The notes under the pieces: model-generated
What the model saw: only the letters and a program-made list of their open reading frames with translations
The model's database searches: none
What the model was told of the DNA's origin: nothing
Assembly: GCF_037042905.1 (NCBI RefSeq)
Contig: NC_087250.1
Coordinates: forward strand, 26,104,001 to 26,168,000
Direction of reading: 5' to 3'
Source of the DNA: Lytechinus pictus
Taxonomy: Eukaryota
Length of the DNA stretch: 64,000 nucleotides
Shown here: in pieces, positions 12,391 to 54,074 of the stretch
Position numbering within the stretch: the stretch's first letter is position 1
Layout of the letters: every line of letters begins with the position of its first letter
Translations under genes and position numbers: made by a program

Positions 12391-12750
12391 CTCATAAATA
12401 CTAATGACGTTTATTCTAAGGAAAGTAGGCAGGAAAAGGCGACAAAACAAGACATCTCCTAGGGCATCTGTCACCATTATCCAGGAAAACATAGTCCCGT
12501 ATACATAGATCTCACCAGGCATTGATATTACAGCTATTGCAGATATATAGCTCACCGCCAGGGACATCGCAACAGGGAAAATACCCATTTTTCGATTACC
12601 CACTAGGAATTCGTCGGCCGTCTTTTGCTTGCCGCCGGAGCAAGCGGAGTACACACCGATAGACGCGGAAACAAAAAGCATCGCGCCGAAGACGACGTAG
12701 TCCCACATGCTGAAATAGCGGGGGCCTGAATCGAGTCCTTGTTGGTCCAT
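12391..12750 (-). CDS. SLC5A8-like: SLC5 sodium/solute symporter (SMCT/NIS/SMVT group), first coding exon
   Basis: MDQQ...WDYVVFGAMLFVSASIGVY...GGKQKTADEFLVGNRKMGIFPVAMSLAVSYISA...PGEIYVYGTMF...SIYE matches the SLC5A5/6/8/12 N-terminus. It ends at the conserved YE|GTGAG phase-0 donor. Confidence 0.93.
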
Positions 12751-16592: not shown

Positions 16593-17130
16593 AAAACAAA
16601 AACAATACTGAACGATGACGCTTCTCTGCGCCATTGATTTCATGGTTCTGTTCTTCCTATAGAGGTTCTTTCAATATAACAGAATAAATAACATACGGAT
16701 ACAATTCTCAATTTTAAATAAACCTGACAATGGTGCCGTGACCTGGAGACCTTGCTGTACAGTCCTATAGACGAAACCGACTCCAGAAAAAGGCCTTGGG
16801 AAGCAGGGTTACAGGGGGTGCTGAAGCACCAGAATTTCCTTTGGGATGCTGCGTGCATTATTTTTCATAGGCAGCATCCCCGAGTATTCTGGAAGATGTG
16901 TCGAATTTGGAAAGGGTAATCAAAATGAAGTTCACTTTGCAGTGAAACTTCTTTTTTTTTTTTGGGGGGGGGGGGTTGATATTACTCTGAACCGATTTGA
17001 CCTCAATTTTGTAGTGAGAACCCTTTTCCCCCAATTTCTTTATGAACCAATTTGAAATCCATGTAGTAGTAAGAAACCTTTTTTTATTCTTTTTTTTCTA
17101 CAGCATCCCGAGTTAAAATATTATTCCCAG

Positions 17131-32934: not shown

Positions 32935-33950
32935 AGGGGAATCCAACCCAAATGGAACCTTTTTTTTTATAAGGAAAAGAAAAATCAGGCAAGTTGATAG
33001 GCGAAAGTTTGAACAATATTGGACAAACAACTAGAAATTTATGAATTTTTAAAATGAATATTGGTTATCACTTTACCCATGAAGACTTCAAATTGGCCGC
33101 ATATGGAATCATACTGATGTAAGGCAAGGACTGCTCTTCCATGTACTTCAATACATATTTGATTTAATTTGATACAAATTGATATAATGATTTTGTGGTT
33201 ATAACAATGATTGGGACGAAATAGATGAAAATGATGTATAAAACAAGAAATCAGAAAAACTACAGAGAATTTTCATTTCGAAGATGCTTTTATTTCAAGT
33301 AAATTTGTTCAATATAGTACAACTACAAAAAGTAAGTTGCCCACAATACACATTCAAAGTAACAAGTAAAACGTCCCGTTTTCAACGGCCAGGCAATATC
33401 AGCACATTCAGTAAAAAGGGTATAACAATTTCATGGGAAGGGTAGAAGCTTCACATTTTCATTACGATACAACATTTGAGACATCATTTAGTTTAGGGAA
33501 TAAACATTATAGAATATATAATGAAGACTTCAAATTGGCCGCATATGGAATCATACTGATGTAAGGCAAGGACTGCTCTTCCATGTACTTCAATACATAT
33601 TATGGCTAAAATTGCATTTTCCCCCAAAGTTTTATATCAAATTATATTTTTCTTTCATGAGGACATAAAACAATACACTACATGTACCTGGGTTATATTT
33701 AGATTACTGCCCTAGGGGAATGGGTACTTAGGAGAAACCCACAAATCCCTGATTATTAGGTACATGGCCTATGGGAAAGTTGTCTATGCCCCTCGTCATA
33801 ATTTGCTTATTAAATTTGAAATGTACATAGTGATCTCAATTTTTAAGCAGTTATTGCTTGTCCGATATTTTTTTCAAACTTTCACCAGTCTGTTTAATTT
33901 ATTTTTCTCCTTCCCAACACAACATTTTATGGCCAAGGGTGGATTCCCCT
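32935..33950. mobile_element. Kolobok-like MITE containing a templated insertion
   Basis: TTAA|AGGGGAATCCAACC...GGGTGGATTCCCCT|TTAC. Confidence 0.7.
33176..33517 (+). repeat. 342-bp direct copy of 30273-30614, flanked by an 81-bp direct duplication (33079-33159 / 33521-33601)
   Basis: The two 342-bp sequences read identical by eye, as do the two 81-bp flanks. Confidence 0.9.
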
Positions 33951-34619: not shown

Positions 34620-36306
34620 TTTTGTTTGACATTTAATTTCGTTTATGCTGACAAAATTTCTTGATTATAAAAATACATGATTATTTGTGCATTAAAAATC
34701 ACCCTCCTTATCACCACGATGATGACCTCAAAATACATCCTGCAAAGATTCCGATTAATTGATAACATTTTATTTGGTGTTAATATTAGTGTGTATTCGT
34801 GTGTATTCATATGATTGACAAACTTATCTCGATAAGTAAATGTACTTAATTACCATAATCAGTGTAATAACGTTCCCTTTCTACTTACACATGACTATTT
34901 TCTGCTCGCAAGTTAAAATCATTTCGTCATGATTAAAGTTCATACATCCCCTAACTTTTTTCTATTCAACAGCAAGTGTTAGTAATATACAACAAAACAT
35001 AATGAAAATATATTTTATTAATCACAAAACGTATACTTTCTACTCATTTTGCAATATACGCTTAAAATTATATGCCATTACATCATAATAATTTTTTACA
35101 TTAAGTCATAATAGAAATGTGCACTATTTACATGAGTTTTTCTAGTTTTATGAAGCGAATTGTAATCAGCTGTATAAAAGCAAACAACAAATATTGAGCA
35201 AAAAAAAAAAAACAATATCGGATTGTCAAGAGTTTCATTTGACAGTTCGCATAGTAACATCGCTTCTCAGGCAATCACAAACAAGAAAAGTCGTTAGATC
35301 TGACACATCGCCGAAAGAAAATGTTGATATATAGCACTTTCTCCCGTTCCATTTTTTATGTTTTTAGGAACAAATTTCGAATAACCTATGTGAATCCCTT
35401 ATGATCAGAAGAAAACAATCGTTTTCATCTTTAGAAAATTCACTTTAGCTAATGCCTCTGGCATAGTCTTCCTGTTTACACACTAAACACAATTTAAAAT
35501 GGAAACGAAATAAACAAATGAATTGAATTGAATTAAATATTATATCAACATGAAACCTCGAGCAAAAGCTACATTATGTGCAGTTATTTGACACATTTTC
35601 TAGTTCTGTCTGATATATATTCTTGTTATATTTATTTACAGCACATTACGATCAACCAGTATCGGATGTTTTTATTTTTATGTTTATAATGAAATTAATT
35701 TGACTTGATTTCATGATGTTGATAAACATCACTGAACGTAGTAGGCGCAAACACATTATTACAGTACGTCAATACAAATAATTAAAAAATTATAAAAATA
35801 AAAATGTTTCAACTCCATATGATACTTTAGATTCACGTAGCCAATGTGTAAGATGAATAACCCGATCAATGTTAGGAGAATAACATCGAATGAAATTGAA
35901 TGAAATGTCGTTTAGTAAATTATCGGGTTAAGTTCAGACAAGTAAATTATTAACACGTTCAATGCTGAATTCAGCCATTCTAAAAGACTTTCTGCAATAA
36001 CCATCTGGTTAAAGTAAGAAATTCGTGAACACATTTGTATTTATTTTGTTCAGGTTACGAGTAAACTATTCATTTTGGATCGGAAGACATTCACTACAGA
36101 CCTAAATCGAGACGGATGAATATTAGCAACAACTTCCTATATGGATTGATACAACATTACACACCATGACCATGTGTATATGAATGAAGTCACGTACATA
36201 CTAGCTAGAAGGATGTAAATTTTAAATGGAAGCAAAAGTGAAAACAAATCTCTGGTCTTTATTTCTCTTAAAAATCCGATTTCATTCCTTTGAAAGTCTA
36301 GATGAT
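34620..36306 (-). repeat. Segmental duplication: 3' flank or 3'UTR of propeller-gene copy C, paralogous to ~44300-47340
   Basis: Colinear blocks such as TATGCTGACAAAATT-CTTGATTA-AAAAT-ACATGATTATTTGTGCATTAAA (34645 / 44331) and GCGAATTGTAATCAGCTGTATAA (35155 / 44854). Confidence 0.85.
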
Positions 36307-37860
36307 TTACAAGATAAATTTCTTCTTGTAAATAAGAAGTTTGTCTTTATCACATCCTACAATGTTACCAGAAGGAGTAACGAGACAAGGGCTGATGTAG
36401 CGAGGGCTATCTGATTTCACGTATTCCACGATCCTCCTTGCCTGGATTATACCATCACGTGACACCTGGTCAACTGCGTAGGTCTTACGCGCTCTATCCC
36501 GGTGCGTGACATAGAGTGTGTCTGTCAGTTTGTCAACTCGACACTCGGACCAGTCCCACTCATCACAATGTATGACAGCCTTCTCTTCTCCTGATCGTGA
36601 GATGACAGTGTATTTATTATCATCTGTACTCACAACGATATCACCTGATGACAAGGCTTGTATCTCACCCACCACCTTCTTACCCTGCATCGTAATAGTG
36701 TTTACTCTCTTACCATTAGCAGGATTGATGACGTAGATATTAGACTGAGCTAACTGAGCAGCGATGATCATCCCATCCCTGTCAACATCAACACACACAC
36801 TCTCCTCTCCAATCATCGGTTTGCTGATGTCTCTAATCACCTTCCATTGTCTGTCATAGAGAGTCACGATTCCATAAAACGTGGAACTCTCGTCATGATA
36901 CCTCTGAATACCACATACTATTCTGTTACTGTCTATCGGCGCACATGATGCAATGCACGTGTTACTATTTCCAACCATTACTTTATTTGTATCATGAGTA
37001 CTGATGTTTGCAACATACCAGTCATTGCTATCTTCGTCTTGCACACATATCTCATTATCACTGACCAAATCACACACAGATTGGGGATTAACAACCAATG
37101 AACCAATTTCGATTGACTTGGCAAGTTCCCATTCACCGACATATCCACCAATTCTACCATAGTATTCTCCACCTACTTCCCCCTCTACAAACTTCACTCT
37201 CTATTCGGTCAAGACAGTCGCTAACATCTTGATGAACATTAAAACTTAAATTTTCATCAATAGATGCAAGTACTTGAGGAGCTTCATTCACCAATGCTTC
37301 ATCATGTTGGTTTATACGTGTGATGGTTGATTCAATATCCTTCATTGCATGCTGAATCTTACTATTAAGATCGCTTATCTTCTCGGAAACTATTTTGCTG
37401 ATTTTATCTGTGTCTGATAAGCATGATGACAATTTTGTTGTTTTGTCTTGTAAAAATGTCCGTTCCAATTCCATCTTGACATTATGATGTTCAATCTGTT
37501 TTTGTCGCATTTCATTTATACCTTGTATTTTCTTATCTGCCTCCTCGTTTATATCACGAATACATTTCTTATGTTCCAGTGTTATTAAATTTAACTGTAA
37601 TTGTGTACCTTCCAATGCGTATTTTATACTATCTTTAATCGTTTCAAGATGCTTACTTGATGAATTTGAAACGGCATCTATCTTGCGTCTTTGTTTTGTG
37701 TCCTCTAACATGACCCGTTTCTCCTTCAGCTTCTTCCTTATCTCATCTAGCTCAGGTTGTTTGTGGTCGTTGCCTTCGGTAGTGTTCGGGCTATTAGAAG
37801 ACATTTTGACATTGCGTTGCTCCCCTGTTACATCTGTTTCAGGTTGGGACACAGAGCAAC
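36307..37860 (-). pseudogene. Coiled-coil + beta-propeller exon, copy C, frameshifted by a 14-nt deletion at ~37200
   Basis: Phase-1 acceptor gatatag|GTTGC at 37860. The ORFs at 37154-37852 and 36307-37197 are the two halves of the protein encoded at 47341-48932. CAGAATGAAGTTGA is missing relative to copy A. Confidence 0.85.
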
Positions 37861-39104
37861 CTATATCGTAAATAATGATTAAAAATTTTTCAATTATGAA
37901 TGGTTAAGTTTTTGTAGTGTTATATTTGATGATAATGATAATAATGACCCTTTTACCCATACTGGGCTGCACTCAACCCAGGTGAGGTAAGTGGGTACCA
38001 ACAGGAAGTAATTCCTCAAAAAGCTGACAGCACCGAAATCGTTGGACTAGCTTAGCAGAGTGTAGGAGGAGAGCTTGAGCACCTAATAAGGTTGATACGC
38101 GCTCTATACCATGTATACAGTGCGTCCCAGGAAAAAAACTGGAATTCATTTTAATTTTTGCCATCATCATTATATATTTTCTTCTTGAGATGAACATCAT
38201 TAAAAAGATACGCTATCCCTCTTTCATTTTAAAGCTCATATCAACGTTATAGTGCTAGCTTGACTGAGTTAGAACAAAGTGGTGCTAGCAAATTTCATTA
38301 TGCACGAGCAAATTACGAATTGAGATGACCTTTGCTGGCTTTTACTGCTATGTAATTGGAAAAATAAAAGTTCTCATCGTTTATATTAATCTTTCATCTT
38401 TCATATGAGACCCTGTGCATGAAATATGATCGACGCATTGTCGAAAAGAAGATGCATGAAAACATGTTTGATTTTTACCATTTCATCAATTAGGAAAACG
38501 AGCATTTTCAACAAGCGACAGACAACGCAACGGGCTACGGGTAAATGCACGGTGAATGTGATTTTATTGCTAGCTTGAAAGTGATGTTTGAATTCTTTTT
38601 GTAAAACTTGTAAAAATATGCTTCATATGACAAGACGAGTTAGGGTGGTGTGGAATATTGGAAAGGGGGGCGGGGGAAGGGGTGACTCACTTAAAGGAAA
38701 CCAAGAAAATTAGTTACTCCCCTTCAATTGTAAAAAGTGATGTACCCCTTTTCTGCTGCGCCCCACCCCGTTCAAACATATTCTGCCGCCCATGTGATGT
38801 GGAGCAACGAATGAGACGAATGAGAAAAGTTTGAGATAAAACTTATCGTAATTATTACAATTGTAACATTGAATTATCGTAACCATATACTCCAGTCCGC
38901 AACAATAACAGGGGCCGCGGAACGGTTTTCAAGGGGGGGGGGGGGGTAGGGCTGAGTGGCTGACCATGCAACAAATCACAATCATATGGTCATTTTTACG
39001 TTTTTTGTGCACTTATTATTGAAATAGATAGCAGTTAAAACCAGCAAAAACTCACTCAAAAATCATAATTTTGTCGTGCCAATGGAAATGTGGTACCACG
39101 ACGT

Positions 39105-39560
39105 TTCGGTTTACTGACGGATGGACTATTGTCACTTGGTCTAATCATCAGATGGGCTAACAACATTCGGGTTAAACCAACTTAGTCATATTCTCTTTTG
39201 GTCTAATGACCCCTTGGTCTAATAGCCAATTAGTCTAATGACCACGCGGTCTATTAGCCACTTGGTCTAATGACCATTTGGTCTAATAGCCAATTGGTCT
39301 AATGACCACTTGGTCGAATAGCCGCTTGGTCTCTTGCCCAGTTGGGCTAATCGTCACTTGGTCTAATACTAGTTGGTCTAATCCTCACTTGGTCCATTAT
39401 TCATTTGGTCTATATCGCAGTTAGTCTAATGTGCAGTTGGTCTAATCCTCACTTGGTCCATTATTCAGTTGGTCTAGTTTCCATTTCGGCCAATTTCCAC
39501 TTGGTCTAATTTCCAGATAGTCTAACATTAATTTCGTCTACATGCCATTTGGTCTAATTT
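39105..39560. repeat. ~20-bp minisatellite (CACTTGGTCTAAT core), possibly a lone foldback-element arm
   Basis: ~20 degenerate TTGGTCTAAT units. No inverted partner was seen in the window. Confidence 0.8.
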
Positions 39561-41049
39561 GTAAAGTCTGCATGGTGACTTGTTTTCATTTTTTTTGTGT
39601 GAAATTTTTAAAGTTACTTTCCGCGCGCCGGCTTCGAATCTTCACACGCGCGCCCCTCGAAATTGGAGTACAGTTAGAGTGACGTATATTTCGTCCTCAG
39701 CTGGATTTTGAAAATATGGGGATTTTCGAAAGCCTGTGGGGACGAAAAAAATATGGGGATTAAACAAACTTTGGGAATTTTTTTTGGTCTGTTTCAGGGG
39801 ATTTTTGAAGGTTTTGGTGAAAAACAATCAAATTTGCTATTTTTCTGTAAAATAACGCTAATATAGCGGTGGACAAAAAATATGATATTTATTTATCCTC
39901 CTCTATGTATACGATCTACTGTAGATAGTTAACGCTGGCTTAACCCAATCATGGTTCCCAACTTTTCAAGCAAACAAAAATCCCTGATTTTTCTCTGATG
40001 AAGTTTAAAAATTCCCGAATTATTTAAACCCAATTCCAGTTTATCATGTCTTCTAAATTGTTGCAGTGAAATACAGGTATTATTATTTTTTTAATTATGC
40101 ATCTATAATGTACCAGTAGGCCTATTGTAGTAAGAGAGGCTACACGAAAAAAAAAACATAACATGTCATTCAATGAATGCTGTTTTAATATACAACAAAA
40201 TATAACAGAGTCTGAATGACTATCGTGCTTTCGACTTTTGGGCCGATCAAAATTACCTGATTTTGCCCTCAAATGAGGCATTTTCCCCGGATTGAGGCAA
40301 TATCTGATTGTAGGAACGTTTAAAAAATCATAAATTTCCTTGATTTCCCTGATGGGGTGGGAACCTTGCCAATCCATTTTAAGGAGGAGGCGAAGAAGAA
40401 GAACACAAAACAGAATGAGAAGATACATAAGATAAAATACTACTGATAAAGGTGTGCAAGCGTAGACTATACTGTGTTATTACACGTCAGAATGAAGTGG
40501 CTGCTACCAAAATGGTCGCAGTGATGTTGTTGCATATAACCCGATAGACCTGTATAGTGTTATCAAACTTTATTTAACTGGTCTGTTATTTGCCTCCAAA
40601 CTAACTATTGAAATAACTAAACAAAATATTCATAACGAAATTACATAAACTAATGGCTTTGCAGTTTTGGAATCCCCCAAACTGCATAACTAGGCCATCA
40701 AGTTCAAGTATCGTCCATAATGATGCATCACAATTATTTAAAAGAGGCATAAACATGTTTACCAAATACGTATCCACACAATCAATTACATCATTTTTGT
40801 TCCTTTCTTCATAATAGTTTTATTCTGATGAAACCCCGCCATTTGACCATTATAAGCTACAAGGTCCCCAACTTATTGTTCTGTAAATGTGCATGCGGCG
40901 ATGTAATGATTATGAGTATGATTTAATTTTCATCATCATCTTATAATCGATATACAGGCCTAATTATAAGATTTATTTGATTAGAATAATTCATTTGATG
41001 AGCGACAATCTCATCATCGATAGTCCTTCACGGTGAGGTTTTGCGCCCA

Positions 41050-41900
41050 CCATGCAGCCCTACTAGGCAAAGAGCATTAGGTTTAACATGGAAATTTCTG
41101 GTAACAAGCTGATTTTTTTTAGGATAGGTCCTGCAATGTGTCTAGAATAACATACTAAAAGTCCCCATAAATCCTCCGTGGGGGTTTTCCGCAATCCAAG
41201 ATGGCGTCCAAAATGGCCGCCATCCACAGAAAATGCGCATAACTCACTCATTATTCACACTAGACATTACATTTCAGTGCATATTTCATGGTTAAAAGAG
41301 GTAAAAAATATATAGTGATATAGGTTAGAGTGGAAATAAGCATACCAGGGTACCTAAAAATCCAATATGGCGTCCAAAATGGCTGCCAAAGCCTAAAAAT
41401 CCACTATTTATCTATTACTTACTATAACGTCTTTAATTTGGTCTCTATTTAATGGTTTTAAGTAATGGTTTTTCAAGTAATAAATTAGGACAAGTTACAA
41501 GGACAGTCAGTGGTCAAGTATGTCTGAAAATGCAAGATGGCTTCCAAAAATGGAGTCCAAAATTGCCGTTTTTACTTGCAAATGGATTTGAGTTTGGTGT
41601 CTAAACCATGGTTAGAAAGGTAAAATAATACATTTAAAAACGCTAAAAGGCCATTCAGTGGTCCAGTTTGTCCAAAAATCCAAGATGGCTTCCAAAAATG
41701 GACTCTAAATTGACTGCTGTTACTAAAAAATTGGCATACTTCATTAAAAAATCCACCTGAGATATATAATATTGGTGTCTAAACCATGGTTTGAAAAGTC
41801 AAATAATACATTTGGACAAGTTAAAGGGACATTCAGCGGTCAGGTATGTCCCAAAATCAAAGATGGCTTCCAAAAACGGAGTGTAAGTTGACTGCTGTTA
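41050..41900. repeat. Repeat with ~150-180-bp periodic CAAGATGGC(G/T)TCCAAAA(A)TGG motifs, likely a DNA transposon subterminal array
   Basis: Motif at ~41195, 41361, 41532, 41680 and 41857. Confidence 0.65.
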
Positions 41901-42357
41901 CTGATTTTTTTTTAAATTGCTGTATATTTGCTACGGATGGTTAAGTGCAGTGCATACATGTAGATTGTTTAGAGTAACACCCATATGTTACCACAATGTG
42001 CCACAAAATATACCTTTTATAGGGAAAATAAATCTATCAAATCACCTGTGACATTTAGTCTTCAATAAGAGTTATATAAATATCTAATCATCCAACATTA
42101 TATTACATCCATATTAACTATAAATTCGTTCGAATTTACAATCTCGATTTACAATTTCGCGATGTTTAGGCCCCTACAGTCAATGAAAACTTTTGCACTG
42201 TTACTTTACAATTACATGTATTACCAATTCTCACCTTAGCTTTAAACAATATTAAAACGTCTCTATTAGGTCAGTATACCTGGCAACTGGGCGCGCTTCG
42301 AGCGCTCACTAAGTGACTCAAATTTTTTGCTGGTGCCCCCCCCCCCCCCCCCCCCAC

Positions 42358-42645
42358 TGGCAGCAATGATCATCCCATCACTGTCAACATAAACATACAC
42401 ACTACTAACATGAGTAATCCGGAAACCAGTCATTGGTATGCTGATGTTTCTAATCACCTGTCATTGTCTGTCATAGAGATAGATGCATCCATTCAACATG
42501 CGTCTCTTACCACATACTATTACATTACTGTCTATGGGCGCATACGATGTAATCAACTTACCTCCGCCAATGAGTTTCTCTTTGTGTTGAGTATTGATGT
42601 TTGTAACTTACCTGTCTTTGTTACGTACGTCTTGCACACATATCT
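42358..42645 (-). pseudogene. Beta-propeller fragment, copy B
   Basis: Translates ICVQDVRNKDR*VTNINTQHKEKLIGGGKLITSYAPIDSNVIVCGKRRMLNGCIYLYDRQ*QVIRNISIPMTGFRITHVSSVYVYVDSDGMIIAA. It is homologous to copies A and C and carries two stops. Confidence 0.85.
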
Positions 42646-42669
42646 ATGAGGCGCCGATTGTACCAATAT

Positions 42670-42985
42670 TATATAGAACAATTATTTGTTATATAATCAT
42701 TATTTATTGAATAATAACTATTATTTATATATAATTTACATTTTATTTGTAAATAATTACTATTATATAAAATAACATTTCTAATTATTTATATATAATT
42801 CCAAGTAATACTTCATTATTTGTAAATAATAATAGTTCGACATTCCATTATTTATAAATAATGATTATTTGTCTTTCATTATTTATAAATAATGATTATT
42901 TGATTTTCATTATTTATAAATGATGATTATTTGTTTTTCATTATTTATGAATAATGATTATTTGATTTTCATTATTTATAAATAA
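42670..42985. repeat. AT-rich ~31-bp minisatellite (CATTATTTATAAATAATGATTATTTG...)
   Basis: Tandem units are clear at 42845-42985. The array occupies the place of the deleted coiled-coil region of copy B. Confidence 0.8.
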
Positions 42986-43013
42986 ACAAGATTTTTACAC
43001 TTTTTCTTCTTAC

Positions 43014-43180
43014 TTGAAGGAAAGAGTTCATCAGCCAGTCGAATTTGACCAGCTTTCTTCAGAGCAGTCTTCAGACCTTCTCTCTCTTTAGCAATTTTCT
43101 GACCTTTACGCCATTCCTGGAGCATTTGAAGAGTTCCATCCCAAGTAATGATATGTGTTTTGTGATTAGTTGCTTTATAA
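43014..43180 (-). pseudogene. 5'-truncated DEATH-domain exon, copy B
   Basis: YKATNHKTHIITWDGTLQMLQEWRKGQKIAKEREGLKTALKKAGQIRLADELFPS A|gtaaga, paralogous to 49523-49799. The 5' half is replaced by CTCCAGACCCGGT repeats. Confidence 0.88.
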
Positions 43181-46100
43181 CTCTTTTCTCCAGACCCGGT
43201 TATTTAAAAAAAATGAATTAAAAAAACTTCAACAGTTCAAATCTAAGACCAATCTTCAAAAGTTACACCCTTACTGGGTGTAAAAATATGTATTTACTCC
43301 GCACCCAGGCCATTTTTTTTAAAATAATACTAAGACCCCTACAAAACATTGTAATAACGCATGGGTAAAGCAAACATCCTTTCTCCAGACTTGGTTATTA
43401 TTTGAAAAAAAAGATAGTTTTTACAAATATTGCTTTGTTTAAAGGGAGTCGGTATTTAGCTTATTGAAGTTATCAAATGAAGGTAATGTAGACTTCCCAC
43501 GGCTTCTAATTTTAAATGATTTAATGTCTGAAACCACATCTTCATCAAGTGCTTCAATGTGAGTGTAATACAGGATTGAGGGAGCGCCATCTTTCGACGT
43601 AGAATGAATAAGAATAAGAAAGCAGTTTCCCAAAAGAGAGAAATTAAATAAATTTTCCGTCCATCTAGCTTGTAACTGTGCTGATATTGTCTGGTTATAC
43701 ACAAAGCGTAAGGGCGTTTAGATCTACCCCCCCCCCTCTCCCTCTCTTTCTACTTCTTTTACTCTTGCTTGCTATCTCCATCCTCTTTCTCTCTTATCCC
43801 CATGTTTCCATCTCCTTAATCTAATCTTTCCTGGCAAGCCTAGTTATGTCTTCTTTAACTTAATTTTCACGAAACCAGTTCAATATACGGAGTTCAAATT
43901 CATCTGTTTTTTCACTTTTGTTATGAATTCCCATGATTGACAGGCTTTGTGATATATTTCACTTTACAATGATTATTAGATTACTTTGTTTTGAGAACAG
44001 AAAACAATGCTATACCCGTCTATTATATCATTCTTTATCACCATTTTCTCTCGATATCATTTTAATACTTCCTCTCCCCCTCTATCTCTCTCTCTCCCTT
44101 TATCTTAAGTTCTATTTCTCTTTCTCCGCCTTTAATCTCGTTGTCTCTCTTTATCCTTTCTTTCTTTCTCTATCTTTCTCTTTTCTCTACTTCCCCTTCG
44201 TCTGTCAACATCATTTTATTACTTTCGACCATTCATGCATGTCCTATATACTCATTTCCAGATCAAAAAAATTAACTGAATATACAGCTTTTTATTAATC
44301 AACACTTTTTTTTCAAATTTACTTCATTTATGCTGACAAAATTACTTGATTACAAAATTACATGATTATTTGTGCATTAAAGACACCCTCCTCATCAACA
44401 TGATGATGACACCCTGCAAAGTTTCCGATCAATTTACAATCTTAGATATTTTATTCAGAACGGTTGATAGTTGGGTTTTTAGATCAGTAATGTGCATACA
44501 ACTGGTTGTGGATTGGCTAACCTTTCTCGAAATGTACTAAATTACCATAATCTATATAGTAAAGATATTTACTTTCTATTTCTACATGACTATTTTCATC
44601 TCACAAGTAGGTTAAAATAATTTCGTCTTGATTAAAGTCTACACATCCCAAAACATTGGCGTTTTTAACTTTTCAAAAGTGCCAGTAATTCACAACAAAG
44701 TATAATGAACATATTTATAATAAAAACTAAACGTATACTCCCCACTCATATTGTAATATACACTTGAAAATAACAGATCATGATCATAGTAAATCATCAC
44801 ATTGTATCATAATAGAAATGTTCATTATGTACATTAATTTTCCTAGTTTATAGAGCGAATTGTAATCAGCTGTATAAGAGCAATAATATTGAGCATATCA
44901 AACAAAGATTGGATTTTCAGGTGTTTCGATGGATAGTTAACATAGTAACAACGCTTCTCAGCCAATCAAAATCAATAATAGTCGTAAGATCTGACTAATT
45001 GTCAGGAGAAATTTATTTATAGAACTCTCTCCCGCTCTCTCTTTGGGAGCGAATTTTTAATAAGCAATGATATAGATAATAACAAGCTATTGAATTGATA
45101 CTTTAAATAAAACATAAACCCTTTATCATTACAATTTTAATTATTATTATTGATCATTACAAATTTGATTATTGTAAGAATACATTCGGTAGGATTCCTT
45201 TGTATAAATGACACATTTCTACATTAACACAACACACCTTAGACAATACAAATTTATAAACAACGCATTGGAGCAACATATGCCATATACAGTACAAACT
45301 GTTTACAAACTTGACGCAGTATTAAATGATAATGAAAAAAAAATTAATTGAATATTATACAGCCTCCTTAATATGAAACCACGAACATAAGCTATGATAT
45401 GTACAGTTGTTTGTCAAATTATCTTACTCTGTGTGTTACACAGCAAATATATTCCTGTTTTATTTATTTACAGCATGGTACGTTCGACTACCAGATGTTT
45501 ATATGTCCATGTGGAAGTTACTGAACGTAGCGGGCGTCAATACATCATTACAGTCGTTAACAAAAAAAACAACTAAAAAATCTGTCAACAATCCAAAGGC
45601 TTGCTACTTGAGATTCCATAGCCAGGTAGTAAGTGTAATATGATATAATAGATTAAACATGTGGTACAAGAAATCTTAATTAATCTTTGTTGAAAATATA
45701 AAGCCGATATATGAGGATAAAGTAAACGGTGTAGAGACGAAAGTAAATGAACTGATTGAAATAAGCGATATGATGTAATACTTTTATGAATATATTAAAT
45801 ATGGAGTGTGCTGAGTCATTTTGAGATGGACGTCAGATGTTTCTACAGAGTGAGAATATTCAATTGGTGTAAAGAGAATTATGGGGGAACCATATTCATT
45901 TCTGTCTATCTTCATCATATCCATTGTGATATGTATGTTGACTGAACAAGGATTCTATTACACAAAATGAGTTTTTCTCTTATTTTCTGTTAACATTCAT
46001 GAGAGGGATTACGTACACTAAAAAATTTAATGATAATAATAATAGTTCGCTTTTATATAGCTCTTAATACATCTGAACGACGTGTCAAAGCGCTTTGCAT

Positions 46101-46404
46101 ATCATTACCCCAGTGGATGTTTCATGAAAGTTTTCAGCACGGATTAATTTGTAAGCACTGACAATTTCAGTGAGATCCTTGGTTTTGATTGGCTCAGAGG
46201 CTCAGGTTCTGACTGCTGCTATGGTAATTGTCGAAAAAGACAACTTGTCAATGCTGACAAGTTTCATGAAACGGTCGCCAGGTCACCGGATTTAATCAGT
46301 CATTCCCGCTCACAAATTCATGCATCCTCGATTCCCCAATAATCTGAATGCTCAGCGCCAGCTGAAATATGATTCATAACTGAGTATTTCATTTGATACC
46401 ACTA

Positions 46405-46758
46405 ATAATGATGATAATCCGCTTTTATATAACGCTTAATACATCGGAACGGTGTGTCTGAGCAATTTACATGTATACTACTACCCCGGTCATCGCATTC
46501 AATCAGTCATTCCCGCACACAATGTGAGCACATCATCCACACCCTGGGGAGTATTCCAGTCAGTCGCCGATGAGGCGCATACAGTACTGGACAAGCTGCA
46601 ATGCCTTTCCCATCCTACCGGGTACCCATTTAGCACCTGGCTCGAGAGTGGCAAAGTGTGGATTAACACCTTGCCAAAGGACGCCAGGCCTCGTTGAAAT
46701 TCGATCACACGACCCTTTGTTTACAAGGTGATAGTCAGAAACATTATACCACGGTTCC
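46405..46758 (-). mobile_element. tRNA-derived SINE; a second 3' fragment at ~46030-46340 is split by a MITE (~46110-46280)
   Basis: The minus strand has a tRNA-like head GGAACCGTGGTATAATG...GGGTCGTGTGATCGAATTTC, a central CCTTTGGCAAGG...CCAGGTGCTAAATGGGTACC block and a tail TATTAAGCGTTATATAAAAGCGG(ATT/ATC)n. Confidence 0.8.
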
Positions 46759-47340
46759 TACACTTGTACTTCACATCACTTTTTTCCCTCTCATTTTAAT
46801 ACAATTTTATTTTACCTCACCTTGCTTGCAACAGAATAAAACATGAAATCAACCTGATGGATAGATTTGATTCAAAGAACCGATAAAGTTAAGAGCAAAT
46901 TTAATCCAAGGGGTAAAGCCATCACTGTTAGGAGAATAATACCGAATAACATTGAACGAAATAGGGTTTGGTAAATGATCGGGTTCCGCTTACATGCACA
47001 ACTTAGTAATTAATTCGTCATATGTCATGCATGCTGGGTTCAGCCATTCCTATAGACGTTCTACAGGGAACATGACAAGTAGGCGATTGATTAACCAATT
47101 TATATTAGTTTTATTTGTTTATGAGTAAACTATACATTTCAAAGCGTAAATCTAGACGGGTGAATCTTAGACACTGCATTTTGTAAGACATACATTGCAC
47201 CTGTATACTGGTACAACATTCACATCGTGCATTGTGAATGTAGTTATGTTGGAGGACATGAATTAAAATGAAAATGAAGCTGAAAATAAGTATCTCGTCT
47301 ATAATTCTTTTAAAAATCATTCCTTGAAATACTTGATGAT

Positions 47341-48932
47341 TTACAAGATGAATGTCTTCTTGTAGATATGAAGTTTGTGTCCATCACATCCTACGAGGTT
47401 ACCAGAAGAAGTAACAAGAAAAGGGTTGACGTCTTTGGGAGAGTAATTTGATCGCACGTATTCCACGATCCTCCTTGCTTGGACGATACCATCAGGTGAC
47501 ACCTGATCAGCTGTGATGATCTTATGCGCTCTATCCCAGTATTTGACGTAGAGTGTGTCTGTCAGTTTGTCAACGCGACACTCTGACAATGCCCACCACC
47601 CCTTACGGTATATGAGAGCCTTCTCTTCACCTGATCGTGAGATGACATGGTGTACGCTAGAAGCTCCATAACCTGCAATCACGATATCACCTGATGACAA
47701 GGTTTGTATCGCACCCCACACCGCCTGATCCCCATTAATAGTGTTTACTATCTCACCATCAGCAGGATTGATGACGTAGATATTATACTGACAGTACTGA
47801 GCAGCGATGATCATCCCATCCTTGTCAACATCAAAGTACACCTCATCATGCTCTCCAATCCTTGGTATGCTGATGTCTCTAATCACCTTCCATTGTCTGT
47901 CAAAGAGAGTGATGCATCTACCTACAAAGTCGTCCGAGTAGTCAATTCCCCTAATACCACTTACTATTACGGTACTGCCTATGGGCACACATGATGTAAT
48001 CAACCCAGTACCATCAATGACTTTCTCTGTGTGTTGCGTTTTGAAGTTTGTAACATACACGGCAAAGTTATTTCGATCCTGAACACATATTTCATCATCA
48101 CTGACCAAACCTCCCACATGCGGTTCTTTAACAACCGATGAAATGTTGATTGACTTGACAAGTTCCCATTTACCGATATACCCATCAATTCTACCATAGT
48201 ATTTTCCATCTACTTCCCCCTCTACAAACTTCACTCTCTCAACTTCATTCTGTATTTGGTCAAGGCAGTCGCTAACATCTTGATGAACATTCAAACTTAA
48301 ATTTTCATCAATGGATGCAAGTACTTGAGGAGCTTCATTCACCAATGTTTCATCATGTTGGTTATCCTTTATAGCATCCGGAATCTTACCAGTAAGATCC
48401 ATTATCTTGTCGGAAACTATTTCGCTGATTTTATCTGTGTCTGACAAGCATGGTAACAATTTAGCTTGTTTGTCTTCGCTTATTTTTTGTTCCCGTGCTA
48501 TCTCACCTTTATAGGCTTCGATCTGTTTTTGTCGCCTTTCTTTTATTGCTCGTATTTCCTTATCTGCCTCCTTGTCAATATCCCTAATCAATTTATTTTT
48601 TTCCCGTTTTATATCATTAAAATTACCTTTAATATCTTCCAATGTCTCTTGTATATCACCCTTAATTGTATCGAGATGCTTACTTGATGAATTCGAAAGG
48701 TCCGTAAGTTTCGATTCAACTATCTTGCGCGGTTGTTTAATTTTCTCTAACATGGCCCGTTTCTCATCATGGTCCATGTTCTCATCGACTTGCTTCCTCA
48801 TGTCGTCTCCAGTGTCGTCTCGGTCACGTTGTTTTTGGTCGTCTTCTTTGACACTCGGAGAAGGAATTTCGACTTTGCGTCGCTTTGCTTTGACATCTCT
48901 GTCATGTATTTTAGTCTGAGATACAGAGTAAC
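47341..48932 (-). CDS. DEATH-coiled coil-beta-propeller protein, copy A, coding exon 2 (linker, coiled coil, NHL-like/6-bladed propeller)
   Basis: The acceptor ttttttccgatgtag|GTTAC at 48932 is phase 1 and open in frame into the 486-aa ORF. A charged heptad-rich helical region is followed by repeated beta-strand blocks (ITLFDRQWKVIRDI, DVDKDGMIIAA, IYVINPADGEIVNTI), as in the C-termini of invertebrate TRIM-NHL-like proteins. Confidence 0.85.
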
Positions 48933-49522
48933 CTACATCGGAAAAAATAACAAGAATATTAAATTTAATACTTAAATGTGATTGTTTTAGCCTCTGATTT
49001 CCCAGCGGTCGCCAATTAGGGGATGTGCTTTTATCTTCTCAAAGACGTTACTCTCTTGATAAGAAGAAAGAAGGGCCATTTTTTTTAAACACTCAATCTA
49101 TTTTGACTTCTAACAGTCTAAGGCGGGTGCTCGACAACTACACCTCTCTAACCGGATGTCTTAAGATTAAATCATTACAAAAAAATCGAATTATTCGAAA
49201 AGTTAGAAAATGATAATTTTTATTGAGAATTAAACAGAATTACGAAGGGAAGTTAGGAAAATAAATTATTTTCTTTCTTCAAGGATCAATAGTAGAAGAG
49301 GCCCGTCGTTGGCGGAGCAAAGAAAAGGGGAACGAAGAGAAAAAAGGGTGAAGAAAAGAAGGGACTGAGAAGAAGAAGAAGAGAAGGAGGAAGAAGAAGA
49401 AGGAGAACAATAAATTAGCACGGTGTACTAATACCAAAATACCAGGAAATGAATTTTTAAAAGCGGCCTGAAACTTTTTATCAGAATAAATAAGATTTGT
49501 ACACTTTATTTTTTTTTCTTAC

Positions 49523-49799
49523 TTAGAGGAAAGAGTTCATCAGCCAGATGAATTTGACCTGCTTTCTTCAGAGCAGTCTTCAGACCTTCTCTCTCTGTTG
49601 CAATTTCTTGACTTTTACGCCAATCCCGGAGCATGTTAAGAGTTCCATCCCAAGTAACGTTCTGTGTTTTGTGATTAGTTGCTATATGACGTTGAACATC
49701 GGTAGGAGTAAATCCAAGCTCTCTTCCCAATGTGTCGATTTCCGAGTTTAGGAAGACTTGTTTAGCCACTTTAATCAGGAGATTATCAAATTCCGTCAT
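49523..49799 (-). CDS. DEATH-coiled coil-beta-propeller protein, copy A, coding exon 1 (DEATH domain)
   Basis: MTEFDNLLIKVAKQV...IDTLGRELGFTPTDVQRH...TLNMLRDWRK...EGLKTALKKAGQIHLADELF follows the death-domain pattern (LGRxLG, MLxxW, LxxAL, LADxL). The acceptor is at 49823, an in-frame stop lies upstream of GCCATG, and the donor A|GTAAGA at 49523 is phase 1. Confidence 0.88.
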
Positions 49800-50016: not shown

Positions 50017-53000
50017 GATACATTTATTCAAATACATTATCAATAAAAAATGACAACACAGATTAACAAAAAAAAAAATAAAATAAAACAATTCTCAAAA
50101 TCAGTTAATCCTTTTTTTCTAAAGTTGACAAGTCTGTTTTGAAAGCAGTTAACTCACTCATCTCTCATGTCTGTAGGTGAATTTGAATATATCGGGTTAT
50201 TTTATGAGCCATGAATAAATTCATCTGTATAGGCCTCTCTATAAAAGCAAGGTTTCGTTTTATACCCGTTCTTATTAATTTAACATAAGTTACAGAGGTT
50301 GGATATATATAGCTATTACGTTTAAAACTTTGAATGAACATGCGGATTGAAGGGCAATCCGCATGTACAATGTACATGTACAATGTACAATGGGCGCTGT
50401 TTTTGCTGCTGCTGCCTTCATTTTTGCTCTCCAAAATCTCACATTTTTCAACTGTTTTGTCAGTGCATTGGGATATCATTTCTATGTCAACTGTTTCAAG
50501 TGGAATCACTGATTCTGGTGAACTACTTTGCATTCTGGATTGGTACCTACTTTTCTCAGAATTTTGAGAGAAAATTTCTGCTCAACTGCTTGGTTTTGAG
50601 AAACCTAAGTGTAGCTGGATATAGCTCTTATGCACAGAGTCAATGTGGACTTTCAGCCCTTTGTTATTGTGAAACCAGCCCAGATGGGAACAATGGAAAG
50701 TGATCCTGCCTGTGGACTGTGTCTATTGTGAAAGGATTATAATCAATGGTAGAAGAGATTATCATTGACTTTCACAGTGTTAATGATGCCCAGGTCAGCC
50801 TTTCAATATAGCAGTGCTGAGCTTCATTCACTGAGACATGCATGTGGTACCAAACATGTTGATGCACATGTGTTTCAGACTTTAAAAGAACTTAACTTGC
50901 TTCATCTTCGTAGTCGACGGGCTGGATCTCACTTACATAAACATCATCGGGAGAGGCCCCACGTATCAGCAAGAACACATAGGTCTACATCTCGACCTGT
51001 GAACCAAAGGAATATCTGCCCAACAGTGTATCCTTTTAAAACTCAAGCAAAGTTCTGCTCTATCAATTCTCAGTCACTGCGAAATAAAACAACAGAATTT
51101 ATTGAATTTGTGTTAGACAATAAACTTGATATCGTGGCCATTTGTGAAACCTGGCTCAAGACTGGAGACGATATTGTCATCGGAGACATCACGCCAACGG
51201 GTTATACGTTCAAGCATTTTCCACGCACAAACAACAAACGAGGTGGAGGCCTTGCTCTCTTATACAAATCTACTCTGAATGTGCGTTTTCCTGAATCTAT
51301 CGCTAACCCCAAGGCTTTTGAGGTTTTCTCAGCTGAAATTGTCAGTTCAACATTATCACTCCTACTTGTTGTAGTGTACCGCCCACCAACTAGATCAACA
51401 GGTTCTTCCTTCGATGCGTTCACTGCAGAGTTTGAGTCACTTATTGAAGATGTATGTTTGAATCAAATGCCTATTATCATCACAGGTGATTTTAATGTTC
51501 ATGTCGACTCAGCGTCAAATGCAAATGCTTGTGCCTTCAAGAATCTCCTCTCTAGCCACAACCTTAGACAAAGTGTTACCTGTCCTACGCATAGAAAAGG
51601 TCACACTCTGGACTTACTGATCACCAGGGAATCAGACCCAACCTTTTTTGATGATCTGCATGTCATCGACGGGATAGCTGATCATTCAGCAATAACCATC
51701 AAGCTGTATCTTGAGCGCCCTCAGAACCAGAAGGTTGAAGTAAAAACAAGGAATGTATCAGCCATCAGTAAGGAGGCTCTCTGTGATGATATAAAGTCTT
51801 CCAAGCTTTCCAGTACAGAGTTGAAACTTAACTCATTGTCATCACAAGCTGAGCAGTATAACACCATCCTTGAAAATATTTTTGATAGTCATGCTCCAAT
51901 GAAGACACGTACAGTGGTTCTGAGACCCCATTCTCCATGGTTCAAGAGCAGCTTTCATACTGAAAAGCGGGAAAGACGTCGCCTAGAGACCTTGTGGAGA
52001 AACTCTGGACTTGAGATTCATCGGCAGATGTATACATCGCAGAAGCAGAAGGTCAATCGACTCATTCGTCAATCAAAGTCAACATACTACAATGACCTGT
52101 TCACAGAGAATGCAAAAGACCAGAGACGACTCTTCAGTATTGCTGATAAAGTCCTTCATCGCAAGAGCAAGTCTCCTCTCCCACAGCACCAGTCAAAGGA
52201 ACAGCTATCCAAAGAATTGTGTAAGTTCTTTGATGAAAAGATCTCAAACATCCGCCAAGGATGCCAGATTGCTGATGACCTAAGCCTTCCTTCTGCTGGA
52301 ATATTGTCATCACCTAGTAACTTGTCGGTATTCAAAGAGGTAACAGAGGATGAGGTACGACGCATTGTATTATCTTCACCACCAAAATCATGTGATCTGG
52401 ATCCTATCCCAACTCTGTTGCTCAAATCCTGTTCTTCTACTGTGATCCCTATTGTGACATCAATCATTAATACCTCTTTACAATCTGGAGAAGTCCCAGA
52501 AGTTCTGAAAGTTGCACAAGTTAATCCAGTGCTGAAGAAGTCAAAACTCGATCCAGAGAACATGAGCAACTATCGCCCGATCTCCAACCTCAGCTTCTTG
52601 AGTAAGACACTGGAGCGCGTCGCGATGAACCAGTTGAGTTCCTACATCACAGATAATTCTCTCCATGATACATTCCAGTCTGCCTATCGTGCCAATCATA
52701 GTGTCGAGACAGCAATCCTCAGAGTCCAGAATGATCTACTTTCCGGCATGGATCAAAAGAAGATATCGCTTCTAGTCCTACTGGATCTTTCAGCAGCGTT
52801 CGACACTGTCGACCATGATATTCTTCTCCATCGACTTAGTGACCTATATGGAATCAGCGGAGTCGCACTACAGTGGTTTCGATCGTACCTGACAGGAAGG
52901 ACGAGCTATGTTTCCGTTGACGGTGCCAGATCCGACTCATCAACGCTGAAGTATGGCGTTCCTCAAGGCTCTGTCCTCGGCCCGCAGTTGTTCAGCATGT

Positions 53001-54074
53001 ACACTTCGCCCATATCTCACATCATCAAGAGGCACGGACTCCAGTATCACCGATATGCAGATGATACACATATTTACTGTACCGTCAACTCATCTCAAAC
53101 TGAGGTCAATTTAGGACTTCAGCGCATTGAATCCTGTGTAGCTGACCTCCAGGAATGGCTGTCTAATAACTATCTTAAGATGAATAAGGACAAGACGGAA
53201 TTCCTTATTGTGGGATCTCGTCAACAACGAGCCAAAGTTACAATAAACCATCTAAGAATTGGCAACTCTTTAATCAAGCCTTCTGATCAAGTGAGAAACC
53301 TTGGAGTAGTGTTTGATTCCTCACTTACAATGGAGCAGCATGTCACAGGCACTTCCAAGGCTGCCTGTATATATATCCGTAATCTTGGAAGGATCCGCAA
53401 GCATGTAACTAAGAAAGTTGCTGAACTCCTTGTTCATGCCTTTGTAACAACCCGACTGGACATTTGCAACTCAATTTTGACTGGTTTGACTCAACATCAA
53501 CTGCACAGACTTCAGCGTCTGCAGAACATGGCCGCACGTCTTGTATCCCTTCAAAGAAAGAGAGTCCACATTACTCCAATTCTGCGTGACCTACATTGGC
53601 TGCCTGTCAACCAGAGAATATCCTATAAACTTGGGGTCCTCGTATTTAAAGCGCTTAACGATAAATCTCCACCCTACATATCAGAGCTCTTATCTCAGCA
53701 TAGACCAACACGCAGTCTCAGATCAGCAGATCAAGCATTGCTGACAGAATCTCTCAGCCACACAACTTGGGGTGACAGAGCCTTCTACATCTCTGGACCA
53801 AAGCTGTGGAATAGCCTTCCTCAATTTATCAGGAGAGCAGAGACCCAATCAACTTTTGAGTCTTACCTGAAGACTTTTCTGTTCCCCACTCCAACATTAT
53901 TGCAAGAATAACTCAATTGTAGCATTACTAGGACAGTACTTGAACTGAATGATGATCCTAAGCACTGTTTAAAGACATTGAAATTTGTGAGATATTTCCT
54001 ATTTTTGAGCAAGCGCCATGAGCGCCCAGCTGAGGCGGATACCGGCGCTATACAAGAACCCATCATCATCAACA
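50017..54074 (+). mobile_element. Apparently intact single-ORF L2/CR1-group LINE
   Basis: Uninterrupted EN-RT ORF, 3'UTR stem-loop AAGCGCCATGAGCGCC...GGCGCTATACAAG and (CAT)n tail. Candidate 11-bp TSD AGAAAATAATC (50006-50016, 54075-54085). The 5' boundary is tentative. Confidence 0.85.
50765..53911 (+). CDS. LINE ORF2 protein: APE-type endonuclease + reverse transcriptase
   Basis: EN motifs NSQSLRNK, ICETWL, GGGLAL, VYRPP, GDFNVH, TLDLLI and DH. RT motifs NYRPISNL, DLSAAFDTVDH, GVPQGSVLGP and YADD. C-terminal HITPILRDLHWLPV. The first ATG is at ~50783. Confidence 0.97.
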   Translation: MTFTVLMMPRSAFQYSSAELHSLRHACGTKHVDAHVFQTLKELNLLHLRSRRAGSHLHKHHRERPHVSARTHRSTSRPVNQRNICPTVYPFKTQAKFCSINSQSLRNKTTEFIEFVLDNKLDIVAICETWLKTGDDIVIGDITPTGYTFKHFPRTNNKRGGGLALLYKSTLNVRFPESIANPKAFEVFSAEIVSSTLSLLLVVVYRPPTRSTGSSFDAFTAEFESLIEDVCLNQMPIIITGDFNVHVDSASNANACAFKNLLSSHNLRQSVTCPTHRKGHTLDLLITRESDPTFFDDLHVIDGIADHSAITIKLYLERPQNQKVEVKTRNVSAISKEALCDDIKSSKLSSTELKLNSLSSQAEQYNTILENIFDSHAPMKTRTVVLRPHSPWFKSSFHTEKRERRRLETLWRNSGLEIHRQMYTSQKQKVNRLIRQSKSTYYNDLFTENAKDQRRLFSIADKVLHRKSKSPLPQHQSKEQLSKELCKFFDEKISNIRQGCQIADDLSLPSAGILSSPSNLSVFKEVTEDEVRRIVLSSPPKSCDLDPIPTLLLKSCSSTVIPIVTSIINTSLQSGEVPEVLKVAQVNPVLKKSKLDPENMSNYRPISNLSFLSKTLERVAMNQLSSYITDNSLHDTFQSAYRANHSVETAILRVQNDLLSGMDQKKISLLVLLDLSAAFDTVDHDILLHRLSDLYGISGVALQWFRSYLTGRTSYVSVDGARSDSSTLKYGVPQGSVLGPQLFSMYTSPISHIIKRHGLQYHRYADDTHIYCTVNSSQTEVNLGLQRIESCVADLQEWLSNNYLKMNKDKTEFLIVGSRQQRAKVTINHLRIGNSLIKPSDQVRNLGVVFDSSLTMEQHVTGTSKAACIYIRNLGRIRKHVTKKVAELLVHAFVTTRLDICNSILTGLTQHQLHRLQRLQNMAARLVSLQRKRVHITPILRDLHWLPVNQRISYKLGVLVFKALNDKSPPYISELLSQHRPTRSLRSADQALLTESLSHTTWGDRAFYISGPKLWNSLPQFIRRAETQSTFESYLKTFLFPTPTLLQE

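Follow-up and report, generated by a model that had tools for sequence, protein, structure and literature searches.

Three neighbouring copies of a gene, one intact (copy A) and two broken (copies B and C), lie within a 64,000-nt stretch of Lytechinus pictus DNA (the window), and they fall into a large family of RING-less TRIM-like proteins in sea urchins (96 matches). Sequence comparison supports diversifying selection on one face of the propeller of these proteins, a pattern that has also been shaped by recombination between paralogs. With a propeller that evolves fast on one face, the family is a good candidate for intracellular immune sensors, and we infer that the variable face may recognize pathogens. 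We think it probable that this tandemly expanded family consists of polymorphic cytosolic sensors or restriction factors, which would be dimeric and use the propeller as their binding end.

One intact gene and two broken copies

Copy A is transcribed and spliced, as seen from contigs of runs X3 and X5 in which a joint skips 590 nt, none of the listed runs being recorded as RNA; the roughly 6% of raw RNA run X19 that was looked at gave five reads, none at 99% likeness. Long contig pieces of runs X1, X3 and X5 held no differences in the copy A propeller. The first exon is the same as the N-terminus of LOC135154569, and its DEATH domain, which falls below the Pfam Death cut-off (E 0.001), resembles an echinoderm NACHT-protein cluster in Atlas features (0.91) and in structure (TM 0.91). 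Pfam scans and the full-length model contained no NACHT or NB-ARC NTPase, and tblastn located no TIR or B-box exon within the window. AF2 predicts helices at residues 147-283 and 286-325, and the family profile matches the B-box/coiled coil of TRIM25 (E 6e-5) and TRIM5 (E 7e-4). Across the hinge (~48186-48363), the DNA of copies A and C is ~95% identical.

Copy C spans 36307-37861, and its coiled coil groups with the DEATH/TIR-headed coiled-coil clade; in the assembly sequence, a 14-nt deletion at the junction of coiled coil and propeller shifts the frame and leads to a stop after 235 residues. Copy B lacks both ends, and the 5' half of the second DEATH exon was not found in the window. The preliminary description of this locus mentions neither the copy C frameshift nor the copy B stops. 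Copies B and C would be dead remnants left by birth-and-death turnover, and they may still donate sequence.

Table 1. Features of the locus (positions within the window)
Feature	Position	Strand	Basis or remark
Copy A, whole gene	47341-49799	-	intact and spliced; combines DEATH, a coiled coil and a six-bladed NHL-like propeller
Copy A exon 1: DEATH domain, ATG at 49799	49523..49799	-	Pfam, Atlas, LOC135154569 N-terminus
Copy A phase-1 GT..AG intron, 590 nt	48933..49522	-	590-nt-skipping joint; splice sites read
Copy A exon 2, first part: linker, TRIM-like coiled coil, conserved hinge	48235..48932	-	AF2, family profile, DNA alignment
Copy A six-bladed NHL-like beta-propeller, intact	47341..48234	-	AF2 pLDDT 88
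Copy A top-face loops, first six	48124-48144, 48061-48075, 48004-48015, 47929-47949, 47842-47862, 47791-47796	-	
Copy A top-face loops, last six	47710-47718, 47656-47673, 47584-47607, 47521-47532, 47422-47454, 47377-47385	-	
Copy A 3' flank, homologous to 35860-36306	46915..47340	-	35% of aligned sites unlike
Copy A distal 3' flank blocks, homologous to 34620-35349 and 35472-35683	44306..45512	-	self-blastn; 23-26% difference
Second DEATH exon, 3' half and splice donor	43012..43170	-	tblastn, DNA alignment
Copy B: propeller fragment, blades 1-3, in-frame stops, pseudogene	42356..42660	-	tblastn, alignment
Copy C coiled coil and hinge, downstream of AG acceptor	37203..37861	-	14-nt deletion at 37202/37203
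Copy C propeller: an open frame, but not that of its coiled coil	36307..37202	-	best family match 73%

Variation and selection on the propeller

The best structural matches of the copy A propeller are the NHL domains of Mei-P26, Brat, NHL-2 and TRIM2 (Z 21-24); the top six VIA matches are all TRIM-NHL domains (Z 20.6-23.8, rmsd 3.1-3.4, 244-259 aligned), and other six-bladed propellers rank next (Z about 19-20). A WD40/WDR5 identity was rejected on the basis of E values of at least 0.1 and the seven blades of WDR5.

The preliminary description had reported invariant blocks alternating with hypervariable segments and had inferred diversifying selection on one ligand-binding face. All quoted blocks and segments were found, with seven of the eight blocks letter-identical in A and C and the eighth (SGNLVGCD/SGNIVGCD) differing only where an x had been written; every conserved block runs across a turn on the bottom face of the predicted propeller, and the variable segments are top-face loops in five of five cases. 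The one-sidedness holds across 88 other family members, in which hypervariable positions number 41/143 in the top half versus 2/130 in the bottom half (Fisher p 5e-11) and, among loop positions, 31/67 versus 0/49. The clustering recurs in each of three species' assemblies, with the same positions variable across them (rho 0.47-0.62). Sixteen paralog pairs with N-termini at least 95% identical share 93% of the bottom and 61% of the top loops, and within the expanded clade the 17 best L. variegatus-L. pictus pairs show 41% difference in the top versus 11% in the bottom.

The dN/dS estimates are pairwise and come from the single pair A versus C, of which C is a frameshifted pseudogene. Top-loop dN/dS was about 2-4 and that of the bottom half 0.8, and maximum likelihood gave a top-loop omega of 4.4 (p 0.004). 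Omega stayed above 1 under three neutral yardsticks, at 1.95-3.6 when flank or coiled-coil values were taken as the fixed neutral rate; at the rate of the most diverged flank (0.48) it was 1.95 (p 8e-5), which places loop divergence above that of the neutral flanks. For the whole top half, omega was 1.69 away from indels (p 0.10) and 1.22 at the harshest neutral rate (p 0.085). On hypervariable sites alone, the maximum-likelihood omega was unbounded because dS went to 0, and only fixed-rate and shared-rate fits were used there. Omega was ~1.0 outside these sites and 0.77 for the coiled coil; constraint is thus weak everywhere in the A/C pair. The 3' flanks do align, as described before, yet their divergence (JC 0.27-0.48) is at least that of propeller synonymous sites (dS ~0.22-0.23). 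Taken together, none of the three outcomes named in advance as contrary to selection on one face (omega of 1 or less, scatter over both faces, flank-level divergence) was observed.

We give little credence to the reading that positive selection is absent and that unconstrained top loops, combined with gene conversion that homogenizes the framework and lowers dS, mimic an omega above 1. Four-fold sites of the hinge, pre-propeller segment and bottom turns would fit it: 4/38 are unlike, whereas the proximal flank shows 35% (p 0.001), the far flank 23% (p 0.11) and the coiled coil 7/23 (p 0.08). So would the almost uncorrelated top-loop identities of different blade pairs (rho 0.07-0.27) and the pseudogene status of copy C. 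However, top-loop omega remains elevated at the fixed flank and coiled-coil rates, the bottom loops show no drift, and variability falls on the same positions in all three species. In addition, top loops are kept in conserved relatives: LOC129258572 and its L. variegatus counterparts are unlike at 1-3/56 top-loop and 7-12/129 bottom sites, so that loop tolerance alone does not explain the variability of the top face.

Heads, hinge and predicted dimer across the family

Most of the 96 proteins bear a B-box head (80/83 at E<=0.001 and 8/13 of the others), which in most begins near residue 25, and a few bear DEATH or TIR; the window's own copies lack a B-box and have DEATH in its place. Neither RING nor filamin matched in any of the 96 proteins, nor did Pfam NHL in these relatives or in the window copies. 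The DEATH and TIR heads are borne out by Atlas and occur in only six records, all from L. pictus, some probably being one gene in two assemblies. Fusions within the family involve DEATH, TIR and ZU5 (ZU5-DEATH), and the B-box-headed members contain no recognised effector domain. Propellers have been swapped between genes near the conserved hinge: LOC135154569 and LOC135154580 show 4 differences in the first 313 residues and then about 40%. The propeller tree (FastTree) has low support. A metagenome scan yielded no relatives among 218 pattern matches, and our literature search found no paper on a sea-urchin RING-less TRIM-like propeller family.

No membrane-length hydrophobic stretch occurs in any of the four members tested; a secreted lectin was likewise rejected, the B-box forms having no signal-like or membrane stretch. 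A homodimer model scored 0.57, against 0.00 for the best of three controls, a score that may reflect structures already known to the predictor, since TRIM25 and TRIM5 dimers are solved; at least 47% of the modelled contacts agree between runs, with pLDDT of at least 71 and contacts symmetric about residue 219. The mark for this score was reached by 21/30 solved pairs and 0/23 single chains from microbes, and by 7/16 animal pairs.

Family members thus join a head (mostly B-box, and in a few Lytechinus genes DEATH, TIR or both) to a coiled coil and a six-bladed propeller, the top face of which diversifies through substitutions, indels in the loops and the swapping of propeller stretches among paralogs. 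An antiparallel coiled-coil dimer would display two propellers, whose top faces may bind a rapidly changing target inside the cell. This target would most likely be a protein or surface belonging to a virus, another intracellular microbe or a mobile element. If the target is repeated, the heads would cluster on it; clustered B-box forms might then cage it or block it, and forms with DEATH or TIR, copy A among them, might trigger death-fold signalling.

Possible binding partners and known systems

Selection may be real and its target something other than a pathogen, such as endogenous mobile elements, germ-line conflict or a polymorphic self protein; we consider this unlikely. Sequence data reveal a fast-changing binding face rather than its partner, and TRIM-NHL relatives function in germ line and development, according to the portions of the literature available. 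The DEATH, TIR and ZU5 fusions, in contrast, indicate immunity, as does coelomocyte expression of relatives, and the cytosolic appearance disfavours gamete or cell-surface recognition. As for that expression, ten S. purpuratus members were compared with the marker lists of coelomocyte clusters in the PMC13043383 supplements, and 8 of them appear there. These lists run to thousands of genes for each cluster and contain the conserved relative LOC100888063, so that this evidence is weak; several members have near-zero counts.

Less likely still, the propellers would be sequence-specific RNA binders like Brat, Mei-P26 and TRIM56, each paralog with a different RNA. The nearest folds are RNA-binding NHL domains, the variable face corresponds to the RNA face of Brat (PMC4015489, in part), viral RNA is bound by the NHL-like domain of TRIM56 (PMC11768893, in part), and Arg, Lys, Tyr and Trp are frequent at variable sites. 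However, TRIM-NHL top faces are described as positive in the available part of PMC4015489, whereas the top-half net charge here, a residue count and not a surface potential, ranges from -16 to +9 (mean -2.3, 92 sequences; copy A 0).

A sensor role, which we favour, has partial parallels. Brat is RING-less through RING loss, and in Pyrin/TRIM20 a TRIM coiled coil without RING links a death-fold head to a binding domain at the C-terminus; that head is PYD and that domain B30.2, whereas copy A has DEATH, no B-box and a propeller, and belongs to a large variable family. TRIM-NHL proteins (Brat, Mei-P26, NHL-2, TRIM2/3, TRIM71, TRIM56) share the plan of B-box, coiled coil and six-bladed NHL-type propeller, with the top face as the ligand face, as proposed for the urchin proteins, and Brat is counted among TRIM-like genes in the accessible text of PMC3503706. 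The urchin proteins nevertheless have only 12-17% identity to them, lack Pfam NHL, RING and filamin, number dozens rather than a few, and have a hypervariable top face that is not uniformly basic by residue count and, in some, DEATH or TIR heads. TRIM5alpha and finTRIM are expanded or fast-evolving TRIMs with recombination and with selection in the loops of the C-terminal binding domain (PMC2657112, in part); positive selection similarly appears concentrated on putative ligand-binding loops in the urchin family (pairwise only), but the binding domain is a propeller instead of B30.2/SPRY, and the lack of RING leaves no ubiquitin ligase of its own. Branchiostoma DED-TRADD-N-WD40 proteins have likewise expanded in a marine invertebrate; they combine a death-fold head with variable propellers, diversify by recombination and are proposed to recognize invaders (available part of PMC8195603), yet their WD40 repeats vary in number, TRADD-N is present, the TRIM coiled coil is absent and the scaffold is unrelated. 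Echinoderm DEATH-NACHT-LRR receptors (NLRs) share the head-scaffold-sensor logic of copy A, whose DEATH domain is structurally nearest to a cluster of echinoderm NACHT proteins and to a mollusc COR-DEATH cluster (TM 0.91-0.92); copy A has no NTPase switch, and a coiled coil and propeller replace NACHT and LRR. The available part of an acorn-worm antiviral paper (PMC10210618) holds no TRIM passage.

The family has been invisible to annotation, nearly all members being named 'uncharacterized' and the propeller having no Pfam match; a recent coelomocyte study filed one member as uncharacterized. The large innate receptor families of sea urchins comprise TLRs, NLRs and SRCRs. It is possible, though we hold this tentatively, that sea urchins have an undescribed fourth one, made up of dimers in the cytosol that bear a hypervariable, antibody-like face on their propellers. 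A conserved hinge would be the point at which its sensor modules are shuffled among scaffolds of different output (B-box caging, DEATH, TIR and ZU5-DEATH). If so, recombination could rewire a new specificity to a new signalling output. The family displays the TRIM5/finTRIM selection pattern on a different fold in a laboratory model urchin. Its small soluble propeller, variable on one face, makes ligand searches direct, as the swap pair, in which one DEATH and coiled coil carry two different propellers, does for output tests, and the family bears on how invertebrates without antibodies may recognize intracellular invaders.

One-faced variability of the propeller

The propeller of this RING-less TRIM-like sea urchin family was modelled as six four-stranded blades with an N-terminal strand as closure (AlphaFold2, 92-sequence alignment, pLDDT 88), and structurally it is closest to the NHL domains of Mei-P26 (Z 23.8), Brat (23.3), NHL-2 (22.2) and TRIM2 (21.2), at 12-17% identity. 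PMC4015489 defines the top face of an NHL propeller, which binds RNA in Brat, as the one built from the b-c and d-a loops; we assigned top and bottom from the strand list of the model by this rule, splitting each strand at its middle. Entropy was calculated from 88 family members, omitting copies A and C (two of the three neighbouring propeller genes), the two most distant matches and six long or fused records. The 43 hypervariable positions (>=2 bits) comprised 41 of the 143 in the top half versus 2 of the 130 in the bottom half (p 5e-11), and this bias was kept inside single assemblies (41 vs 1, 40 vs 2 and 40 vs 3, from 15, 19 and 10 sequences), in agreement with the preliminary description, which had inferred diversifying selection on one face. 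Among loop positions, 31 of 67 were hypervariable on top and none of 49 on the bottom. Loop length varies on top as well: from blade 2 to blade 3 the connecting d-a loop has 3 to 25 residues. Every bottom turn keeps one and the same length in no fewer than 88 of 90 sequences.

Within the expanded clade, the 17 best pairs between species diverge by 41% in the top loops, against 11% in the bottom half. LOC129258572 of L. pictus, a distant and conserved relative, showed 1-3 differences at 56 top-loop sites and 7-12 at 129 bottom sites when compared with two L. variegatus records, and six more 90%-clusters of distant relatives, selected by similarity, showed little or no top excess. Among 198 columns that are conserved in the family, copy A itself deviates at 38, against a family median of 14, and these deviations are concentrated on top (22/69, versus 13/111 on the bottom; p 0.002); thus, the face of copy A has been reshaped in its own way.

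Probable selection and exchange in copies A and C

For the single pair A and C, the counting method gave dN 0.76 and dS 0.32 in the top loops, 0.98 and 0.35 at the family-defined hypervariable sites (bootstrap p 0.0075), and 0.13 and 0.18 in the bottom half. By codon maximum likelihood, omega was 4.4 in the top loops (p 0.004), 2.1 in the top half (p 0.011), 1.69 in the top half more than two codons away from indels (p 0.10), 1.41 across the whole propeller (p 0.09), 1.0 at non-hypervariable sites, 0.80 in the bottom half and 0.77 in the coiled coil. The neutral yardsticks were three flank distances (JC 0.48, 0.27 and 0.32) and the coiled-coil dS of 0.42. Fixing the neutral rate to 0.27, 0.42 or 0.48 gave omega values of 3.6, 2.2 or 1.95 in the top loops (largest p 8e-5) and 2.2, 1.4 or 1.22 in the whole top half (last p 0.085). 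The proposed excess of dN over dS in the loops, and their divergence beyond the neutral flanks, therefore held for this pair, and the pattern of variable loops against invariant blocks is real, one-faced and greater than neutral change.

Synonymous differences between A and C are few in the hinge (the conserved stretch between coiled coil and propeller) and bottom turns, where 4 of 38 four-fold sites differ (p 0.001, 0.11 and 0.08, depending on which of three yardsticks is used). This scarcity suggests gene conversion; the pair may thus have no single age. The earlier argument that alignable 3' flanks make the duplication not ancient consequently stands for the flanks, but not for the whole pair. 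Copy A and LOC135154580 show 4 differences in the first 313 residues and about 40% beyond, the switch lying inside the hinge, and nearest neighbours differ from blade pair to blade pair.

The three copies and their surroundings

One of the three copies is intact, since B is a fragment with stops and C, through a 14-nt deletion, has its propeller out of frame with its own coiled coil. Copy A has two coding exons, and its propeller is a 100% match to L. pictus LOC135154569 in the protein search. The 590-nt GT..AG intron is skipped by a joint in contigs of X3 and X5 (two of four sequencing runs, none recorded as RNA), and contig pieces of X1, X3 and X5 match the propeller with zero differences. 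The uncovered stretch in X1 could reflect an individual with the propeller on a different scaffold, or a filtering hole. Elsewhere, a 345-bp direct duplicate represents either a recent duplication or an assembly artefact.

Features around the propeller copies
Feature	Position	Strand	Remark
Copy A	47.3-49.8 kb	-	intact
Copy A exon 1	49799-49523	-	DEATH
Copy A exon 2	48932-47341	-	coiled coil and propeller
Uncovered in X1	48407-49563		coiled coil and intron
Copy B	42.4-42.7 kb	-	stop-carrying fragment
Half DEATH exon	43012-43170	-	ahead of copy B
Copy C	36.3-37.9 kb	-	frameshifted
Copy C deletion	37202/37203		14 nt
LINE-type ORF	50753-53911	+	open, 1052 aa; endonuclease and reverse transcriptase; ~1 kb upstream of copy A DEATH exon
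Fragment, looks related to LINE-type ORF	17056-18012		no Pfam match
Sodium:solute symporter exon	12364-12783	-	Pfam SSF
Direct duplicate	30273-30617 and 33176-33520		99.7% identical
Degenerate tandem array	39198-39540		16-bp unit; between copies B and C

Family composition and proposed mode of action

A search with the copy A propeller, restricted to proteins of 521-2000 residues (2475 candidates), gave 96 matches, of which all 85 named ones are from sea urchins (L. pictus, L. variegatus and Strongylocentrotus purpuratus) and 18 lie on one and the same L. pictus contig (28.5 Mb). Searching the 50%-identity representatives with a profile yielded 86 matches at E<=1e-30; among the 30 representatives checked, every named propeller match was a sea urchin, Diadema included, and named non-urchin proteins matched in the B-box/coiled-coil part only. 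Pfam scanning of all 96 found a B-box in 80 of 83 family members and 8 of the remaining 13, and zero RING, NHL or filamin matches. The variants are DEATH-coil-propeller (copy A), DEATH-TIR-coil-propeller (LOC135154451), TIR-coil-propeller and forms with a ZU5 tail, TIR being assigned from Pfam (E 0.005) and Atlas matches. The DEATH-TIR head as query retrieved six records, all from L. pictus. The DEATH/TIR forms, copy C and one L. variegatus record share one coiled-coil clade (FastTree support 1.0), and their propellers are scattered in the tree.

LOC135154580 and LOC121416823 carry a ZU5-containing tail C-terminal to the propeller, with, in the former, a further death-like region at its end, judged by eye; these tails could be real fusions or gene-model joins. 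The TIR domain of the DEATH-TIR form, P0040 (residues 105-265), has unnamed clusters and bacterial TIR proteins as closest Atlas feature matches, and its sequence places a glutamate in a helix at what is presumably the TIR NADase position. Six LOC ids occur in both of two L. pictus annotations, and the records that share an id disagree at 16-28 of roughly 63 top-loop sites, as very divergent alleles or re-assigned paralogs.

Expression in S. purpuratus offers weak support: in the accessible portions of PMC13043383, at least eight of ten expanded-clade genes checked appear in phagocyte or colourless-cell cluster marker lists, as does the conserved relative LOC100888063; LOC115926785 is a strong marker of cluster 0 (adjusted p 6e-172). 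The same portions give near-zero bulk counts for several members, count 140 annotated TRIM genes and contain no B-box or NHL mention that we could find.

In a two-copy model of residues 135-622, the coiled coil was antiparallel, with residue 219 as its centre of symmetry (score 0.57 versus 0.00 for the best of three controls; contact agreement at least 47%, pLDDT at least 71); because similar TRIM dimers are already solved, the model demonstrates likeness only. The TRIM5 lattice model serves as template for placing heads and propellers on the rod. By this analogy, the rod would carry heads at its ends and propellers closer to its middle, and the heads would be brought together when propellers bind a repeated target, a putative path from binding to output. 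Because Asn, Arg, Asp, Tyr, Lys and Trp are abundant at the variable sites (13% Tyr+Trp, versus 6% for the propeller as a whole) and charge counts of the top half range from -16 to +9, varied proteins would fit better than RNA as candidate ligands.

Literature searches aimed at the family, with most subscription journals and probably the classic urchin immune-repertoire papers outside their scope, found no paper on it. Positive selection on finTRIM loops is described in the part of PMC2657112 available. The urchin family falls outside canonical TRIM and NLR proteins, and outside TRIM-NHL on sequence and charge. A RING-less TRIM-like family combining a hypervariable NHL-type propeller with exchangeable heads thus appears to be undescribed, and we infer that it works like TRIM5/finTRIM or NLR proteins.
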